Shown piece after piece: positions 128 to 11,630 of a DNA stretch of 64,000 nt. Where the stretch lies: the NCBI RefSeq assembly GCF_029023825.1, contig NZ_CP118957.1, positions 1,571,794 to 1,635,793 on the forward strand, written 5' to 3'. How positions within the stretch are numbered: position 1 is the first letter of the stretch; each line of letters starts with the position of its first letter. The DNA comes from Enterococcus saccharolyticus subsp. saccharolyticus. Lineage in GTDB: Bacteria; Bacillota; Bacilli; Lactobacillales; Enterococcaceae. The notes under the pieces were generated by a model. It did not search any database, was not told the origin of the DNA, and worked only from the letters and a program-made list of their open reading frames with translations. Made by a program: the position numbers and the translations under genes.

Positions 128-157
128 ACGTTCAGGACAAGATATTCAACGTTTGGG
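128..157 (+). promoter_or_regulatory. Two 9-bp direct repeats ACGTTCAGG (128-136) and ACGTTTGGG (149-157) separated by 12 bp; putative LytTR-type response-regulator binding site. An extended -10 TGgTATATA at 186-194 follows with no good -35.
   Basis: Read directly from the sequence. The same repeat, spacing and distance to the extended -10 recur at 2425-2491. Confidence 0.55.
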
Positions 158-221
158 CTATAAATGGTTTCTAGGGTTTATTTTGTGGTATATATTATTC
201 ATTAGTTCAAGGAGGTTTTAT

Positions 222-713
222 ATGAAAAAATTATTATTGTTATTTGCTTTTACTACTTTCACTGTTTTTGGTGTGCTATCTGAGGTAAATGCAGAAGAAC
301 TATCTGTAGATTTAAACAGCAGTTATGCTTCTACAGATATAAAAAATGATGAAGGTGAAATTATTGGTCAATTGGTAGTTTCTGAAGAAATTCCATCTAC
401 GAGTTTTTCTACCAGAAGTTATATTGATCAAGCATTGTCAAATAAAACATTTGACGTTAAGTTTATTGGTGTAACAGCAAATTTTGGATACAAAGTAACT
501 GTAAAGAACAAAAAAATTACAAATGCTTACGGGGCTTGGTCAAACGGTATTATTTGGAGTACTGACTTAGGAAAACCTTATTTTACCTCAACTACATCAG
601 GCGTAAAAGGTAAAACCAGTTTCGGTATCAGCGATTTTAGTTTCAATACAACAGTTAGGCTCAAAGGAAATATTGTTGACAATCGACTAAAAACATACCT
701 TTCATTTTCATAA
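222..713 (+). CDS. Secreted protein of unknown function, 163 aa, with a Sec-type signal peptide (MKKLLLLFAFTTFTVFGVLSEVNA).
   Basis: ATG at 222 preceded by a strong RBS AAGGAGG (210-215). The track ORF begins at an upstream TTG (153) that lacks an RBS. N-terminal hydrophobic signal with an AEE cleavage-like site. Confidence 0.7.
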   Translation: MKKLLLLFAFTTFTVFGVLSEVNAEELSVDLNSSYASTDIKNDEGEIIGQLVVSEEIPSTSFSTRSYIDQALSNKTFDVKFIGVTANFGYKVTVKNKKITNAYGAWSNGIIWSTDLGKPYFTSTTSGVKGKTSFGISDFSFNTTVRLKGNIVDNRLKTYLSFS

Positions 714-734
714 CTAGAAATTGGTGGTGTTAAA

Positions 735-902
735 ATGATTTATGCTTACATTACAGGGCTGATTATAATTCTTATTCTAGTCTTCGTATCATTTAATTTA
801 AAACAGAAACATCAAAATAAAGGATTCACAGTGCTATTTTATCTAGTTTTAGTTGTCTTGGTAGCCTATTTGTTACCATCAGTTTCTTATCTTTTTCTAT
901 AA
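735..902 (+). CDS. Small hydrophobic protein, 55 aa, two predicted TM helices, co-transcribed with 222..713.
   Basis: ATG at 735 after GGTGGTG, 21 bp downstream of the preceding stop. Sequence MIYAYITGLIIILILVFVSF...VLFYLVLVVLVAYLL is strongly hydrophobic. A terminator follows immediately. Confidence 0.45.
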   Translation: MIYAYITGLIIILILVFVSFNLKQKHQNKGFTVLFYLVLVVLVAYLLPSVSYLFL

Positions 903-911
903 TATAAACAA

Positions 912-946
912 CCTCCACGCCTTTATCATCAGCGTGGGGGTTTTTA
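912..946. terminator. Bidirectional rho-independent terminator: hairpin CCTCCACGC...GCGTGGGGG followed by a T-run.
   Basis: GC-rich inverted repeat, then TTTTT on the plus strand and an A-run before it for the minus strand. Sits between the plus-strand operon and the convergent SH3 gene. Confidence 0.7.
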
Positions 947-973
947 TAAGCAAAACACAACACGGTTATTTTA

Positions 974-1216
974 TTAAACTACTGCGACATAACGCACTTT
1001 ACCACTACCACTAATATATTTAAGCCATACATACCCATCCGCAATCACTTTTCCTATATAAGTTATAGTATCACCTGAATGATACACAGCTACCACACTA
1101 TGCCCCAATCCAGGTTTTGTTCTTACGTTGGTAGCCACTGTAAATTTGTAGGTGCCTTTATTAGGTAGATTTTCACCTTTTAACAATGGTCTGCTAGGTG
1201 TGTTTGTCTTTGACAC
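974..1216 (-). CDS. Stand-alone SH3_5 (bacterial SH3) cell-wall-binding domain protein, 80 aa; likely remnant of a phage endolysin C-terminus.
   Basis: The motif NVRTKPG...YHSGDTITY.GKVIADGYVWLKYISGSGKVRYVAV matches the SH3_5 pattern of Firmicute phage lysin C-terminal domains. No catalytic domain is present upstream. Confidence 0.6.
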   Translation of the reverse strand: MSKTNTPSRPLLKGENLPNKGTYKFTVATNVRTKPGLGHSVVAVYHSGDTITYIGKVIADGYVWLKYISGSGKVRYVAVV

Positions 1217-1375
1217 ACCTTTATTAACAATTTTTCATAAATATACATAATGTATATTGAACTGTATTGCTGCGTCTTCCATAGAACTTTTTTCAGTGTA
1301 CCTATTATAGCAAATTTTCTGAAAAAACGTGAAGTATTATTATTCATTTTTACTAAAAAAATAAGAATTGTAGTA

Positions 1376-1405
1376 TTGACAAATATCCAAATAAAAAGTA
1401 AGATT
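1376..1405 (+). promoter_or_regulatory. Sigma-A-type promoter for the tRNA: TTGACA (1376-1381), 18-bp spacer, TAAGAT (1400-1405).
   Basis: Consensus -35 and a near-consensus -10, about 14 nt upstream of the mature tRNA 5-prime end. Confidence 0.5.
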
Positions 1406-1418
1406 TTAACTGTTATTG

Positions 1419-1501
1419 CGGACGTGTTGGAATGGCAGACAAGCATGATTGAGGGTCATGTGAGCGTACGCTCGTGTGGGTTCAAGTCCCATCGTCCGCA
1501 T
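1419..1501 (+). tRNA. tRNA-Leu, anticodon GAG, class II with a long variable arm.
   Basis: Acceptor stem GCGGACG/CGTCCGC. D-stem TTG/CAA. Anticodon stem CATGA/TCATG with loop TTGAGGG, giving anticodon GAG and G37. A 15-nt variable arm, T-arm GTGGG-TTCAAGT-CCCAT and discriminator A. No encoded CCA. Confidence 0.85.
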
Positions 1502-2424: not shown

Positions 2425-2454
2425 ACGTTCAGGCATAAATTTACGACGTTTACG
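2425..2454 (+). promoter_or_regulatory. Second copy of the direct-repeat site: ACGTTCAGG (2425-2433), 12 bp, ACGTTTACG (2446-2454). An extended -10 TGgTAATCT at 2483-2491 follows.
   Basis: Left repeat identical to site 1, same 12-bp spacer, and the same 31-bp gap between the right repeat and the -10 hexamer. Confidence 0.55.
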
Positions 2455-2601
2455 ACATAAATAGTTTTAAGACTCCAAAACATGGTAATCTGAACAGTAA
2501 GATACCTTTATTAAGCATTCGATAACATTTACACTATACCTAACCTCTCACATTTCGAAAAATACTCCACTATTATCCTAATAAAGAAACGAGGTTTTTA
2601 A

Positions 2602-3444
2602 ATGAAAAAAATTTTTATAAGTAGTTTGTTAATAACTTTTGCTACCGTTTTCTTGGTCGGTTGCGATAAAAACGAAACAGTGAACAACTCCGCCACAAAT
2701 TCAGCCATTTCTGTAAGTGATCATTCAAGTGAAGAATCAACTACTACAGAATCAATTACAGCAACAACCATGAATTTGGAAAACAAGACGATCGAAACAA
2801 CTATTCAAAAATCAACTGTACAATCAACCGTTGCATCTTCAACGATTGAACCAACACTTGCTGATTTTGTCGGTGGCTGGGGACTTCCTCAAACAGATAT
2901 ATTATTTTTCATAGCGAATGACGGATCGTTTGCTACTGCCACTGCTGGTCCTAATGATACTCCCCCATCTTATCCGAATTATTCATTTCGTTTTAATACA
3001 GATGGCAAACCAGTAATGACCATGACAAGCGACACTGGAACAACAGATTTTATTTTAGAACCCGATGGTACGTTAACTATCGATGGTAACACTTATATTT
3101 ATCTAGGAAATTATACTCGTGAGGGATTTACAGCTGCCAAAATTGCCGAATACCAAGCAGCTGAACAAGAACATGCAGCTACTGCAGACTCCACTTCTTT
3201 TAATGAAGTGCCGATGGATTCGTTTGGTGCAATTGAGTCAGCCAAAAGCTATCTGGCTGGTGGTGGTAACACGACGCAATTTGATAATTACACATTTACT
3301 GATACTAATGGTTTAATGACTGATGAATCTGGTAGATCCTATTATTCCATTATGATACGTCAAAATGGTGGAAATGGGATGAAATCGATGGCTATTGGTA
3401 TCATCAACGTTTATACTGATAACGGTGAATGTGTTTGGCAATAA
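2602..3444 (+). CDS. Lipoprotein of unknown function, 280 aa, with a Ser/Thr-rich linker and a C-terminal globular domain.
   Basis: ATG with RBS GAGGT. Signal peptide ending in lipobox FLVGC (Cys21). Low-complexity T/S-rich segment from about residue 30 to 95. Confidence 0.75.
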   Translation: MKKIFISSLLITFATVFLVGCDKNETVNNSATNSAISVSDHSSEESTTTESITATTMNLENKTIETTIQKSTVQSTVASSTIEPTLADFVGGWGLPQTDILFFIANDGSFATATAGPNDTPPSYPNYSFRFNTDGKPVMTMTSDTGTTDFILEPDGTLTIDGNTYIYLGNYTREGFTAAKIAEYQAAEQEHAATADSTSFNEVPMDSFGAIESAKSYLAGGGNTTQFDNYTFTDTNGLMTDESGRSYYSIMIRQNGGNGMKSMAIGIINVYTDNGECVWQ

Positions 3445-3530: not shown

Positions 3531-3731
3531 TTAACCTTTAACGATGTTTGTTGCTTGAGGTCCACGTTGACCTTCTTCAATATCAAAAGTCACTGCTTGA
3601 CCTTCTTCTAAAGTTTTGAAACCTTCACCTTGGATAGCTGAGAAGTGTGCAAACACATCTGTTCCATTTTCTGCTGTGATAAAGCCAAAACCTTTATCTG
3701 AGTTAAACCATTTTACTGTACCGTTATTCAT
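3531..3731 (-). CDS. csp: Cold-shock protein, CspA family, 66 aa.
   Basis: [18 protein letters not shown]...VFAHFSAIQ carries the RNP1/RNP2 motifs of the cold-shock domain. Confidence 0.95.
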
Positions 3732-3910
3732 AACGTACCTCCAAATTACACATCATGTGTGTTTATTTTGTAATAACGAGTGAAGTGCAAATAGAAGTGC
3801 GTATCATTTTTTATAAAGATAAACATATTATAGTTACATATCAAAAAGTATTACTTACATAGTATAACATGGATATTTAGCGAATGCAACTTAAATCGCT
3901 TTACTTCTTC

Positions 3911-4561
3911 TTATTTTTTCTTTGAATTCGCACGATACTGACTTCTTGTCATTTTAACGGACGGATTAGAATTAAACTTACGAACAGCTGGATCAGAATC
4001 TTTGCGTGCTTGATAGGCAGCAGGTTCTGTATCAAATAACATGTATTCTTCTTTCTCCATCGATTCCATCAATTCTTCTTCTGAAACAGCCGAAGTGTGT
4101 TCATCAGGTATGATGGATGCAGGAATGTATTTAGGAACAAACGGAGACTTTTCAACTGGTTCTTTCGTAATCGTTGGTCGTGTTGTTTCTGTACGCTTCT
4201 CTGTCACTTGATACGTACTATGCGCCACTGTATCACCAAATAAACGTTTTTTCCCTGTTGGTGTAACTTCTGGTTGATAGCGTTTATTATAGTCTGGGAG
4301 ATTTTTACGATGCTTGCTTAGTTCTTCTTTTTGGCGAATACTTTGCCCTGCTTTCCCCTGACTCACACGAGGTGAGCGACGGAGAGCACGTTCTGCCGTA
4401 CTTTCAACAGGTTGTGGATGCTTGGCAGCTTCAGTAATAATCCAATTATCATCACTTTTAAAAGTTGGACGATTATTTTTAGGTTGTAATTTCACACCTG
4501 CATCGTCTGCATAGGCTGGAAAACGAGCATGCTTCCGTTTAATTTCTTCATATTTGACCAT
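3911..4561 (-). CDS. Hypothetical protein, about 216 aa, highly basic and charged, predicted intrinsically disordered.
   Basis: Start chosen at MVKYEE, 9 nt after AAGGA; the track's GTG at 4603 lacks an RBS. Low-complexity K/R/E/P/T-rich composition with no recognisable domain. Confidence 0.45.
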   Translation of the reverse strand: MVKYEEIKRKHARFPAYADDAGVKLQPKNNRPTFKSDDNWIITEAAKHPQPVESTAERALRRSPRVSQGKAGQSIRQKEELSKHRKNLPDYNKRYQPEVTPTGKKRLFGDTVAHSTYQVTEKRTETTRPTITKEPVEKSPFVPKYIPASIIPDEHTSAVSEEELMESMEKEEYMLFDTEPAAYQARKDSDPAVRKFNSNPSVKMTRSQYRANSKKK

Positions 4562-4633
4562 TTCTTTCATTCCTTTTATCACGATTTTTTTTAATGATAC
4601 CACAAATAATAAGGCTTCAACAGTTCTAATCCC

Positions 4634-4670
4634 AAAAAAACAGAGGCAGATAATTTGTCTGCACTCTGTT
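4634..4670 (-). terminator. Rho-independent terminator downstream of the GH13 gene (end of the glg operon).
   Basis: Minus-strand CAGAGTGCAGAC...TCTGCCTCTG followed by TTTTTTT. Confidence 0.75.
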
Positions 4671-4675
4671 TCATC

Positions 4676-6547
4676 TTATACAAGTTGTAATTGTTCTTGA
4701 TTCATATGGAATCGTTCCATTTTTTCTTTTTTCTCTTTACTGCTGATAAAAATATAACTATTTTCAGCAACTGCACGGCCCGTTAACCGACGACGAACTT
4801 CTTGAATTAGTGGTGTTTCCTCTGCAATAAATGTCAATTCTTCTACAACACGTTTTGGATAGTTTGTTGGATTCATTAACGCTGCCACATACTCGTCACC
4901 ATCTCTTCTTAAAATCCCAAATAACTCGTCCGTGAAAAAGAAACTTAAATCACCATGAACCAATACCTCATAATCGTTACGACGTTCTACCCATTTACGA
5001 CAACTGTCATAAATTTCACGATTCATTTGATTCCATGGGAAAAATTTACGATTTTCAGGATCTTTTGCACCAGTCAATCCGGCTTCATCCCCATAATAAA
5101 TACAAGGTACACCAGGAGACAAGAACATAAATCCAAAGGCTAAATCTAATTTTTTCGTATGATTGCCAACCATTGTTAAAATACGCTCTGTGTCATGCGT
5201 ACCAATGTTATTTAGATTGTTATAAAAAATATCACGTGGATAATTTTCATATAATCGTGTCAATGATTTAGCAATTTGTTCTGGTGAGCTTTTTTCATTA
5301 AGCAAATCAATGGCACTATCACGTAATGGATAGTTCATGACACCTTGTAAATGATCTCCTAGAATATATTCTCGGCGAACATCGTAAGATACTTTATTCG
5401 AAGCATCTTCCCAAACTTCACCAATCAACACTCGGTCTTCATAATTGTTTAAATTTTTTCGAATTCCGGCAATAAATTCATCGGGCAATTCATCGGCAAC
5501 ATCTAAACGCCAACCATCTACACCAAATTGATTCCACTTTGTTAAGACACTATTTTCTTCTCCAAAAATGAACTTTTGGAATTCTGGATCATGTTTATTG
5601 ATTTCTGGTAAATCCTTAATTCCCCACCATGATTCATACTCTTGAGGATAATTGATAAAGTTAAACCAAGAGAAATACTCACTGTGACGATTTTGGAACG
5701 CACCTATATTTGTTCCATATGAACCACTTGCATTAAAATAACGACTATTTTGTCCGACATGACTAAATACACCATCTAAGATAAGATGCATGTCATTTAT
5801 GTGTAAAGCATCGATTAATTCTTTAAAATCTTCTTCTGTACCTAAAACAGGGTCAATTTTAAAGTAATCAGATGTATCGTAGCGATGGTTGCTACAAGCT
5901 TCAAAGATAGGATTGAGGTAGATACCTGTAACACCTAACTCTTTTAAGTACGGAATTTTTTTTATGATTCCTTGAAGATTGCCTCCAAAAAAATCCCAAC
6001 GTAAAATATCGCCATTTGAACCTTTAACATATAAAGGTTCGTCTTCTTCTGTTGCATAAATAAATGTATTGGGTTTTGGTGAATTCACTTTTTTATCTGG
6101 ATTCCCGTTGTAAAAACGGTCTGGAAAAATTTGATAAAAAACACCATTACGATACCAATCAGGTGTACATTCTGCCGATTGGTAACAAGTAATTTGAAAA
6201 TCCCAAATAGTTGCAGGACGATCATATAAACGACCTTCTCCACCTTGTTCACTTGCGCCATAATATTCAATAAATACCTGATCATTGACTTTTGTATGCA
6301 CTTCAAAATGATAAAAGTAAAGTCCTTTTCCTTGATTGAAAAAGTACTCATACGAATATAGACCTTCTTCTTGTTTTTCCATAAAAATACGTTGCTCTGG
6401 TTGATGATCCTTGTGCATGACCAAATACACTTGTAAAATGTCCTCGGCGATTACCTCAATAGATAATCGCGCGAGTCCGTTTTCTTTTACTGCTCCAAAA
6501 GGGTGTTTATAGTAACTTTGCCAAGGATTAAAACGAATTAAAGACAT
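4676..6547 (-). CDS. GH13 alpha-amylase-family enzyme (neopullulanase / maltogenic amylase / cyclomaltodextrinase-like), last gene of the glg operon.
   Basis: GH13 catalytic signatures: DGWRLDVADE (nucleophile region), EVWED and NIGTHD-like motifs. Start placed at MSLIRF (6547) with RBS GAGGG, overlapping the glgP end by 20 nt. The alternative start is 6610. Confidence 0.8.
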   Translation of the reverse strand: MSLIRFNPWQSYYKHPFGAVKENGLARLSIEVIAEDILQVYLVMHKDHQPEQRIFMEKQEEGLYSYEYFFNQGKGLYFYHFEVHTKVNDQVFIEYYGASEQGGEGRLYDRPATIWDFQITCYQSAECTPDWYRNGVFYQIFPDRFYNGNPDKKVNSPKPNTFIYATEEDEPLYVKGSNGDILRWDFFGGNLQGIIKKIPYLKELGVTGIYLNPIFEACSNHRYDTSDYFKIDPVLGTEEDFKELIDALHINDMHLILDGVFSHVGQNSRYFNASGSYGTNIGAFQNRHSEYFSWFNFINYPQEYESWWGIKDLPEINKHDPEFQKFIFGEENSVLTKWNQFGVDGWRLDVADELPDEFIAGIRKNLNNYEDRVLIGEVWEDASNKVSYDVRREYILGDHLQGVMNYPLRDSAIDLLNEKSSPEQIAKSLTRLYENYPRDIFYNNLNNIGTHDTERILTMVGNHTKKLDLAFGFMFLSPGVPCIYYGDEAGLTGAKDPENRKFFPWNQMNREIYDSCRKWVERRNDYEVLVHGDLSFFFTDELFGILRRDGDEYVAALMNPTNYPKRVVEELTFIAEETPLIQEVRRRLTGRAVAENSYIFISSKEKKEKMERFHMNQEQLQLV

Positions 6548-9053: not shown

Positions 9054-10484
9054 TTACACTATACTTTCATATAAAGCTAGGTAGCCTTCACAGCTAGTTT
9101 CCCAACTGAAATCTTTAGACATCGCATTGCGACGTAATTTATCCCAAGCTTCTGGAGAAGAATAGTATAAATCAATAGCTTTTTTCAAACATTGCATCAA
9201 ATTATATGATGTAAAGTCTTGGAATCCAAATCCTGTGCCAGTACCTTCTACTGGATTAAATGGTTCAACAGTGTCACGCAAACCACCAATTTCATGAACA
9301 ACTGGCAATGTGCCGTAACGCATTGAAATCATTTGTGATAGCCCACAAGGTTCAAATGCAGATGGCATCAAGAAGATATCTGCACCAGCATACATTTTTT
9401 GAGCAAGTTGAACATCAAACGAAATGCTAACTGAACATTTTTCAGGATATCTTTCAGCAATCGATTGGAAACGATTTTCAAATACTGGATCACCGGTTCC
9501 TAATAAAACAAACTGAACATCAAATTGTAATAAGTTTTCTAACTCGTCTAATACTAGATGGAAGCCTTTTTGATACGTTAAGCGACTAACAACAGCAATC
9601 ACTGGTACTTCCTTAATTGGACGTAAGCCCATTAAACGTTGTAAGTCTTCTTTATTTGCTTCTTTACCTGATAAATCGTCTACAGAATACGGGCTAACTA
9701 GTGCTGGATCTGTTTCCGGATTGTTGATGTCATAATCAATTCCATTGACAATTCCACTTAATTTGCCACTTTCCATACGTAAAATTACATCTAGTCCAGA
9801 ACCAAATTCTGGCGTTTTAATTTCATTCGCATACGAAGGACTTACAGTATTTACACGATCAGCGTATAAAATACCAGCTTTCATAAAGTTCAAAGCATCA
9901 CCCATACGGATTGTGCCATCATCATAACGCTCTCTACCCATGCCGAATAAATCTGGTAACACATTCCCACTATATTGCCCTTGGAATTCAATGTTATGAA
10001 TCGTTAACACTGTACGAATATTACTATACGCTTCAATCCAGTTATATTTTTCTTTTAGTAAGAACGGAATCATTGCTGTATGATAGTCATTAACATGAAG
10101 AACATCTGGAATAAAATCAATTTTTTCCATTAATTCAATCACTGCCATTTGGAAAAAGGCAAAGCGTTCCCCATCATCATAATAGCCGTATAAACTTTCG
10201 CGATCGAAATAATACAAGCTATCAATAAAGTAATAGGTTACTCCGTTTAATTCCAAACGTTTCACACCACAATACTGCTTACGCCATCCAACAGTTACTG
10301 TAAAGTTTAAAACGTCTTCACATTGCTCTTTATATTTAGGAGGCATTTTAGTGAAATAAGGTAAAACAACAACCGTTTCAGTTTCTTTTTTCGTTAATTC
10401 CTTTGGTAGCGCACCTGCTACGTCTCCTAAACCGCCTGTTTTGAAAAATGGCGCACATTCAGATGCTGCAAATAGAAGTTTCAT
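9054..10484 (-). CDS. glgA: Glycogen synthase (ADP-glucose dependent, GT5), 476 aa.
   Basis: N-terminal KTGGLGDV motif and overall GlgA architecture. Confidence 0.95.
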
Positions 10485-10487
10485 TGT

Positions 10488-11630
10488 CTAACCTCCAATA
10501 ATATCTGCTGTTACATGCGTTCCTTTTTTAACAACGACAGGTTTTTCTGGCGTTCCAACAATTTTCACGCCTTCTTCTACGACAATATTTTTATCTAAAA
10601 TTGCGTAGCTAACTTCCGCATTCGCTTTGATTGTATTGCTTGGGAAAATTAGTGAACCACTAACTTTGGCACCTTCAGCAATATCACTCCCACGACCAAT
10701 AATTGAATCTTCTACGTTTCCTTCAATCATACAACCCGTCGAAAATTGACTGTTATTAACAACTGATGTTTCAGAATAATAAGTTGGTACTTCATTTTTC
10801 AATTTTGTATATACTTTTTGACTTGAATACAATAATGAATTGAATTTTTGCGTATCCAACATATCCATATTTGCTTTATAGTAAGAAGGAATGTCGTAAA
10901 TATTGTTTAGGTAACCAGTATACTCATATGCATACGTATCTTTTGAAATACGCTCACGTAAGAAACTCTCTACGTTTCCTAAAACATTTTCAGATTGTTT
11001 TTCACGTAAAATTTCAATTAATTTTTCTGTTTTAATGATAAAAATATCTGTACATAAGTTTGCTACATCTTGTACTTCTGCATTTTTCACTAAAGCTTTT
11101 TTTTCAATTAAGTTATCTTCACCTAATTTGATAATGATATCTTCTTTATATAACAAATCTTTAGGTACACGTTTATACACCACTGTCATTTCATTGCCAT
11201 GTGCTTGATGAATGTGTAACAATGCACGTAAATCAATGTTCACTAAGATTTTGCTACCCATGTAAACAGCATATTCAGATTTTGATTTTTTCAAATAATC
11301 GATAACTAAATCATAGTAGCTGCTATTGTTATCGGCGCGACGGATAAAGTCTTGGTAGATATGAATGAAGAAACGATTTTGAATACCGTCTAAACTCCAT
11401 TCTTTCCCGCCACCAATATGGTCAAATACAGATTGCGTTTCACCTTCATTAAATACCATGAACAATGATTTAATATTCGCATTTGCAATACTTGATAAAT
11501 TAAAATCAAGCAAGCGGTACTTTCCATCAAATGGTAAAGTAGATAGTGGACGATTCGCAGTTAACGGTAATAAATCATCATAACGATGCAAATTTCCAAC
11601 AAGCGCACACATTTTATTAGTCCTCATCAA
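10488..11630 (-). CDS. glgD: Glucose-1-phosphate adenylyltransferase regulatory subunit GlgD-like, 380 aa.
   Basis: Paralog of GlgC with a degenerate N-terminal nucleotide-binding motif, positioned between glgC and glgA as in the Firmicute glgBCDAP operon. Its start overlaps the glgC end. Confidence 0.8.

Follow-up and report, generated by a model that had tools for sequence, protein, structure and literature searches.

A DUF5626/Zea-family protein with a predicted Sec signal and a two-helix membrane partner probably form a conserved, often mobile gene pair in Enterococcus saccharolyticus and its relatives

We analysed a 64,000-nucleotide stretch of the Enterococcus saccharolyticus subsp. saccharolyticus genome (NZ_CP118957.1, positions 1,571,794 to 1,635,793 of the forward strand; hereafter the window), near the left end of which two adjacent open reading frames, ORF1 and ORF2, lie between a candidate activator-dependent promoter and a terminator. 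The window sequence is also that of JXLD01000007.1 (GCA_001886235.1); positions given below for locus L001 convert to window positions by subtracting 9779. ORF1 (222..713, + strand) encodes 163 residues, with its ATG at 222, its stop codon at 711-713 and a Shine-Dalgarno sequence, AAGGAGG (209-215), six nucleotides 5' of the start. The N-terminus, as read from the sequence, consists of MKK, LLLLFAFTTFTVFGVL and SEVNA|EE and contains a hydrophobic core of 16 residues; residues 1-24 (nucleotides 222-293) are predicted to form a Sec signal that is cleaved after A24, ahead of an all-beta domain of the DUF5626/Zea family. Because it contains no cysteine, the protein is not a lipoprotein, and it also lacks an LPXTG motif. 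The predicted mature form of 139 residues (15.3 kDa) has an acidic N-terminal part with an isoelectric point (pI) of 4.05, followed by a basic, lysine-rich core with a pI of 10.1. This charge dipole, an acidic region of pI ~4 preceding a basic core of ~95 residues and pI ~10, is common to all members of the ORF1 subfamily.

ORF2 (735..902, + strand; ATG at 735, stop codon at 900-902) encodes 55 residues and has its own Shine-Dalgarno sequence, GGTGGTG (723-729). Exactly 21 nucleotides separate it from ORF1, and no stable hairpin forms within this gap. The protein has two hydrophobic segments (maximum Kyte-Doolittle value 2.82 over a 17-residue window), the first and second transmembrane (TM) segments, which are connected by the basic loop NLKQKHQNKG. 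An intrinsic terminator (909..947, + strand) closes the operon: its 11-bp GC-rich stem is followed by a U-run, the structure has a folding energy of -20.7 kcal/mol (z -8.0), and none of 200 shuffled sequences folds as well. No terminator-like structure lies between the two ORFs. The layout set out in the original prediction, a bicistronic unit made of an intact ORF for a Sec-exported 163-residue protein, a 55-residue two-helix protein 21 bp behind it and a strong terminator, is therefore confirmed.

The original prediction also held that ORF1 has no recognizable domain and that neither ORF can be assigned to a family, and it named profile searches and structure prediction as checks. Both were run, and for ORF1 both statements proved wrong. 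ORF1 matches PF18540 (DUF5626) with 106.7 bits against a cut-off of 26.7 (E = 1.3e-30), and its residues 30-158 cover positions 1-120 of the 120-position profile. A protein identical to ORF1 is already named 'DUF5626 family protein' by NCBI. A fragment of Zea (PDB 4K15, Listeria Lmo2686) matches PF18540 as well (E = 4.1e-28). The AlphaFold2 model of ORF1 is all-beta, with a mean predicted local distance difference test (pLDDT) score of 59 and a core that becomes ordered near residue 65, and its predicted fold corresponds to that of 4K15. We assign ORF1 to the DUF5626/Zea family with near certainty, as judged from these profile matches.

Within this family, Zea is the only characterized member. 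It is a Sec-secreted, toroidal homohexamer of Listeria monocytogenes that is reported to bind RNA, for which a positively charged face has been proposed, and to modulate RIG-I signalling (PMC6907008). ORF1 and Zea are 17-19% identical, a direct phmmer comparison gives an E-value of 0.15, and a profile of the ORF1 subfamily finds no match among the PDB sequences, where 4k15 was not retrieved. By these measures, ORF1 is best described as a distant DUF5626 member that belongs to a separate subfamily and is not the Zea orthologue. This subfamily is of enterococcal/vagococcal type and very small: a set of 5.8 billion proteins contains 16 clusters of it at 90% identity, and a second set, of 1.84 billion, contains 23 representatives (E <= 0.001); all ORF1 relatives aligned have signal-like N-termini. 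A profile search of genome contigs with the subfamily alignment gave 164 pattern matches, none of which was confirmed. A second scan of genome contigs, with the Zea fragment as query, returned Zea-like loci only, from Listeria immobilis (80% identical) and from Geobacillus, Anoxybacillus and Ectobacillus (31-36%). In Enterococcus gilvus, we observed a second, divergent DUF5626 paralogue (L010/L011, 7305-7808, - strand) that lies head-to-head with the ORF1-like gene, was missed by tblastn with ORF1 and has no ORF2-family partner ORF. The literature searched contains no mention of DUF5626, and PMC6907008 describes neither enterococcal relatives nor a partner gene.

We examined the surroundings of 12 other ORF1-like genes, all distinct (L007, L008, L011-L017 and L023-L025), and a small membrane protein is encoded downstream of every one. 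In 11 of these 12 loci, a hydrophobic ORF on the same strand is positioned anywhere from an overlap with the DUF5626 gene to 30 nucleotides 3' of it; in L016 the distance is 190 nucleotides. The partner is 53-67 residues long in most loci and truncated to 30 residues in L025/L026. Start and stop codons abut or overlap in four loci, which suggests translational coupling. The aligned partners have the basic loop in common, and one proline of the second TM segment, equivalent to Pro48 of ORF2, is invariant. A hidden Markov model (HMM) of the downstream small ORFs, built with ORF2 left out, recovers ORF2 from the 910 ORF segments of the window with 23.3 bits (E = 2.7e-6); the next-best segment reaches 10.8 bits, and none of 1000 shuffles attains 23.3 bits. 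Across the fetched loci as a whole (3321 ORF segments), the partner HMM matches only the ORF directly 3' of each DUF5626 gene, one copy per locus. The divergence of the partner tracks that of the DUF5626 core (Mantel r 0.73, 0 of 5000 permutations), with the partner evolving much faster (mean identity 27% versus 60% for the core). As far as sequence can tell, ORF2 is a real gene and not a chance ORF, and ORF1-ORF2 very probably represents a conserved two-gene module. The partner HMM found no match in five Zea-like loci (Listeria immobilis, two Geobacillus, Anoxybacillus and Ectobacillus), L018 and L021 offering little downstream sequence; on this evidence, the two-TM partner appears to mark the ORF1-like subfamily and not the whole DUF5626 family. 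Searches of Pfam, NCBIfam, PHROGs and PADLOC gave nothing significant for ORF2, the best matches being YesK (3.5e-4, below the cut-off) and Ssi4 (0.35).

Upstream of ORF1, a bipartite candidate activator site (site 1; 128..159, + strand) is formed by a distal repeat, ACGTTCAGGAC (128-138), and a proximal repeat, ACGTTTGGGCT (149-159), with a 10-nucleotide spacer. The repeats have a periodicity of 21 bp, agree at 7 of 11 positions and share an identical ACGTT. The segment ATAAATGGTTT lies between them and an extended -10 element, TGgTATATA (186..194, + strand), which was read from the sequence. A sigma-70 scan found no full promoter upstream of ORF1; there is no usable -35 element (GGTTTC at 166-171), which suggests that the promoter depends on an activator. 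LytTR regulators recognize 9-10-bp repeats with 12- or 11-bp spacers (9+12 or 10+11 bp) ahead of a weak promoter (PMC2766830). Two copies of the pattern ACGTTCAGG-N12-ACGTTT are present in the window, where 0.1 are expected. The second copy, site 2 (2425..2456, + strand; pattern at 2425-2451), reads ACGTTCAGGCA-N10-ACGTTTACGAC and is followed by TGGTA at 2483, and the offset between TGGTA and the proximal repeat is 37 nucleotides at site 1 and site 2 alike. Site 2 lies 146 nucleotides upstream of a DUF4950 lipoprotein gene (2602..3444, + strand; lipobox LVGC; PF16308, E = 3.5e-24), which is likely a second member of the regulon, outside the ORF1/ORF2 module. The TTCAGGA core bears only a loose resemblance to the FsrA consensus. 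As a compact predicted AgrA-type operator, the ACGTTCAGG-N12-ACGTTT pattern could be used to map the regulon in enterococci and vagococci.

The same layout recurs next to AgrC/AgrA-like systems in two unrelated contigs. In L017, whose DUF5626 protein is 60% identical to ORF1, genes for an AgrC-like kinase and for a LytTR response regulator are divergent from an operon for, in this order, a 94-residue secreted protein, the DUF5626 protein and a 61-residue two-TM protein. L028 was the one biological match of a metagenome scan with the motif alone: its AgrC/AgrA-like pair is immediately followed by ACGTTCAGGAT-N10-ACGTTTAGGCAATAAATGGTTT, a gene for a 74-residue secreted protein and a two-TM ORF of 56 residues. 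The other match of that scan, L029, is a high-GC contig and was taken as a chance match. Both the L017 and the L028 promoter align to site 1 without gaps. The recurrence of the layout at site 2 and in these two contigs supports LytTR-type control, and we consider it likely that the ORF1 promoter is of the LytTR/AgrA type and probably density-dependent, with the repeats as putative binding sites of its regulator. A tblastn search with the L017 and L028 proteins found no LytTR regulator or kinase in the window, in L001/L002 or in the 10 kb upstream. Any quorum control at this locus would consequently depend on a regulator encoded elsewhere, and E. saccharolyticus has a candidate in the AgrA-like protein P0107, which shares 61% identity with the regulator of L028 and 52% with that of L017. 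Of the LytTR-type quorum promoter proposed originally, the LytTR geometry has thus held up, with added weight from the recurring motif and from L017 and L028, whereas a regulator within the window or the 10 kb upstream did not materialize.

An 84%-identical duplicate of the ORF1 promoter was observed at L001 9643-9697 (feature 9643-9760), 84-137 nucleotides 5' of window position 1. It drives only ~45 nucleotides, containing the mini-ORF MKKDLS with its stop codon, ahead of a terminator of -14.5 kcal/mol, and has no Rfam match. It may specify a small RNA or be what is left of a gene since lost.

The ORF1-ORF2 pair has a GC content of 30%, compared to 35.5% for the window, and is contained in a 1.8-kb islet bracketed by direct repeats of ~210 bp that are 87-93% identical. 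Each repeat carries a promoter and the first ~25 nucleotides of tRNA-Leu(GAG). The right border of the islet (1232..1501, + strand) comprises the right repeat copy at 1232-1441 and a tRNA-Leu(GAG) gene at 1417-1501, and the left repeat with a second tRNA-Leu(GAG) gene lies just upstream of the window (L001 9197-9516). In L001 coordinates, the repeat copies span 9197-9408 and 11011-11220, and the tRNA genes 9431-9516 and 11196-11280. The two tRNA-Leu(GAG) genes are only 76% identical, a truncated tRNA 5' fragment is also present, and an Rfam search of the islet found two tRNAs and nothing else. Overall, the islet looks like an old insertion or recombination at a tRNA gene. Between the terminator and the right repeat, an ORF of 80 residues on the opposite strand (974..1216, - strand) matches SH3_5 (PF08460, 3e-10) and the endolysin profile phrog_1309 (3.3e-14, C-terminal part of the profile only). 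From these matches, it is a predicted remnant of an endolysin cell-wall-binding domain, and it would mark the islet as decayed mobile DNA. The ORF1 protein itself is 100% identical in two E. saccharolyticus assemblies and in several metagenomes, and the flanks of the two assemblies differ by 80 mismatches in the first 1500 nucleotides (ungapped comparison).

A similar association is seen in the related loci. The 5.9-kb contig L012 carries Rep3 and relaxase genes together with the DUF5626 gene and two tiny TM ORFs, and the only other called genes without a replication or mobilization annotation are two unassigned ORFs of 96 and 229 residues. L013 and L016 are Mob_Pre contigs, whereas L008, L014 and L015 contain Tcp/type IV secretion system (T4SS) conjugation genes (TcpE/VirB4-like/TcpC/CHAP, TraG, DUF8208), and L025 and L026 present islets in different flanks. 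ORF1-like loci therefore appear to be predominantly associated with mobile elements. Since tblastn of ORF1 against the PLSDB plasmids and a phage collection gave no match, the evidence for plasmid carriage comes from metagenome and Logan contigs; terminal overlaps gave no sign that the plasmid-like contigs are circular. The notion of a module made of a secreted and a small membrane protein is strengthened by these findings, as it is conserved in the 12 further loci and often found with plasmid or conjugation genes.

Taken together, we favour the view that the pair is a mobile, bicistronic effector/immunity-like module under AgrA-type control, which we consider the best overall explanation, with a probability of roughly 0.45. 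The functional assignment within it, ORF1 as an antagonistic effector and ORF2 as the immunity protein, is put forward tentatively. At high cell density, the phosphorylated form of an AgrA-like LytTR regulator from another locus of the genome, for which P0107 is the candidate, would bind at 128-159 and recruit RNA polymerase. ORF1 would be exported, cleaved after Ala24 and folded into a Zea-like beta domain that probably oligomerizes, forming a ring of which one face is strongly basic, and this cationic protein would act extracellularly on a polyanionic target. ORF2 would form a hairpin in the membrane, its basic loop facing the cytoplasm, and serve as the producer's cognate protection or docking factor. 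A pair of this kind would be effector/immunity-like (bacteriocin-like) and benefit the mobile element that carries it. This reading draws on the cargo of the L012 contig, on the coupled and fast-evolving partner and on the repeated pairs of secreted and tiny TM proteins in L017 and L028; the frequent location of the conserved module on plasmids or conjugative elements fits it as well. Tiny hydrophobic immunity proteins are known, for example, for circular bacteriocins.

Several observations weigh against this interpretation. No bacteriocin, toxin, immunity, phage or defence model in Pfam, NCBIfam, PHROG or PADLOC matches either ORF, and the partner HMM revealed no orphan immunity-like copies in the fetched loci. 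Zea, the one relative studied so far, binds RNA and is not a toxin (PMC6907008), and effector activity of the ORF1 subfamily is itself a prediction. The presence of the gene among conjugation genes in three loci would equally fit a role related to transfer. With neither a LytTR regulator nor a kinase in the window or the 10 kb upstream, the promoter may be orphaned in this strain, and the motif is missing from the promoters of most other homologous loci. Finally, the AlphaFold2 model of ORF1 is only of modest quality. The interpretation offered in the original prediction thus stands in part: the two-gene unit, the LytTR geometry and the conserved mobile module are retained, and the absence of a domain or family for ORF1, the proposed analogy to a processed Fsr-controlled peptide such as EntV and a local regulator are not.

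By analogy, the operon resembles LytTR-controlled operons for secreted factors and their immunity proteins, yet appears to fall outside any known bacteriocin family. Like the bacteriocin/immunity operons of the pln, blp and sil type, it combines direct repeats of 21-bp periodicity ahead of a weak promoter (PMC2766830) with a secreted product, a co-transcribed small membrane protein, carriage on plasmids or other mobile DNA and, in L017 and L028, repetition of such pairs under one regulator. In contrast to those systems, ORF1 is a folded, Sec-exported beta protein of 15 kDa and not a peptide with a double-glycine leader, no ABC transporter, C39 peptidase or inducer-peptide gene was recognized with ORF1-ORF2, and neither protein matches a curated bacteriocin or immunity model. 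With Zea, ORF1 shares the Pfam family, the fold, Sec secretion, a mature size of ~140-150 residues and a basic domain, and both occur patchily as accessory genes. The ORF1 subfamily differs by its two-TM partner gene, by its frequent proximity to plasmid or conjugation genes and, in some loci, by an AgrA-type promoter or regulator, none of which is found in the Zea-like loci examined.

These likenesses to Zea are the basis of a rival reading, in which ORF1 is a secreted, ring-shaped RNA binder that stabilizes extracellular RNA and ORF2 an accessory membrane factor, for instance for release or loading. The common Pfam family and fold, the Sec signal and the lysine-rich core of pI ~10, which resembles the proposed RNA-binding face of Zea (PMC6907008), all speak for it. 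We nevertheless consider it unlikely, as the low identity of 17-19%, the phmmer E-value and the failure of the subfamily profile to find 4k15 place the two proteins far apart, gene organization differs between the subfamilies given that no partner ORF was found in the five Zea-like loci, and an obligatory, fast-evolving membrane partner would be left unexplained. Alternatively, the pair might be an accessory of the envelope or of the mobile element, with an extracytoplasmic ring docked on a tiny membrane anchor and a role in the homeostasis or stress response of the cell wall, or else in mating or exclusion during conjugation, and not in attack on other cells. In Listeria, zea closes the lmo2689-2686 operon, which is induced through CesRK and also encodes FtsW2 and RodA3 (PMC6686043). 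In line with an envelope function, L016 has an FtsW/RodA gene (3691-4872) 2 kb downstream and L025 a LiaF-like gene upstream; the pair lies amid T4SS/Tcp genes in L008, L014 and L015, as a conjugation accessory might, and the loci where the stop codon abuts or overlaps the next start point to a stoichiometric complex. This reading is quite unlikely in our view: the pair also occurs on small mobilizable contigs that lack T4SS genes (L012, L013) and in a chromosomal islet, the SEDS and LiaF associations are sporadic (2-3 loci), and AgrA-type control is more typical of secreted factors. The proximity of DUF5626 to SEDS (FtsW/RodA) genes in two settings unrelated to each other, the L016 Mob_Pre contig and the Listeria CesRK operon, hints at an envelope connection and is recorded here as an observation in its own right.

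The decayed appearance of the islet raises a different issue, namely whether, in this genome, the module is mobile DNA in decay that has lost its regulation and no longer serves a function. The truncated endolysin domain, the duplicated tRNA and promoter fragments, the promoter copy that drives ~45 nucleotides and the lack of a LytTR regulator close by would all be expected of such a remnant. However, both ORFs are intact, preceded by good ribosome-binding sites and followed by a terminator, the ORF1 protein is fully conserved between assemblies with differing flanks and in several metagenomes, and the species encodes an AgrA-like regulator, making outright decay very unlikely. Least probable of all is the processed-peptide model that the original prediction drew from Fsr-controlled loci, that is, a Sec pre-pro-protein trimmed by an extracellular protease to a small active peptide, as for EntV. 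The archetype EF1097 is a 170-residue precursor encoded with a small downstream ORF, ef1097b (PMC5454873). EF1097 (EntV/enterocin O16) and ef1097b belong to the E. faecalis Fsr regulon, and the resemblance lies in a Sec pre-protein of ~165-170 residues, a small ORF behind it and a LytTR (FsrA/AgrA-type) promoter; the acidic N-terminal part ahead of the basic core of ORF1 likewise speaks for this model. The active peptide of EntV, by contrast, is a disulfide-bonded C-terminal fragment of 68 residues released by extracellular processing of the gelatinase (GelE) type, whereas ORF1 has neither cysteines nor disulfides, and no cleavable pro-region is evident. EntV is helical. The all-beta model of ORF1 leaves no separate pro-region, and the Pfam domain spans residues 30-158. 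No EntV chain was among the PDB sequence matches at E <= 1, nor among the top 50-60 fold matches listed. With no similarity in sequence or fold, homology of ORF1 to EntV was rejected, and an EntV-like mode of action is barely credible.

Returning to the effector/immunity-like interpretation, it may be extended to the whole subfamily. ORF1-like DUF5626 proteins might constitute a new class of Sec-exported, ring-forming effectors with a dedicated two-TM immunity or docking protein of 55-67 residues, spread by plasmids and conjugative elements of enterococci and vagococci and switched on by Agr-like quorum sensing, that are bacteriocin-like or bind extracellular nucleic acid or the envelope. We regard this generalization as doubtful; if it were true, the Zea fold may originally have served interactions between bacteria and not with a host. 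The reported role of Zea as a secreted RNA binder modulating RIG-I is unusual, and a sister subfamily with a strictly conserved membrane partner has now come into view. Its partner gene, its frequent carriage with plasmid or conjugation genes and, in some loci, its Agr-type control are absent from the literature searched. ORF1-ORF2 is a simple, tractable two-gene system in which the role of the Zea fold in bacterial ecology, be it antagonism, RNA handling or the envelope, can be addressed.

Two further observations concern peptide signalling and secreted factors near these loci. About 2.4 kb upstream of the window (L001 6801-7932), a regulator of the RNPP type (helix-turn-helix and tetratricopeptide repeat domains) is encoded together with a divergent ORF of 59 residues, and may represent a second peptide-signalling system. 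It might also control the ORF1 promoter, but is the less likely candidate, since the repeats there are phased at 21 bp, an arrangement seen beside AgrA-type regulators. Pfam and NCBIfam searches with the remaining small proteins, secreted or TM, of L017, L025 and L024 gave nothing significant. The AgrCA-like loci L017 (54-1836) and L028 (2344-2723) carry several unassigned small Sec-secreted, Tyr/Gly-rich proteins of 74-131 residues, each followed by tiny two-TM ORFs. They have C-termini such as KNGYIGYYV and KGGYVGWYV and may form an undescribed family of quorum-regulated secreted factors.

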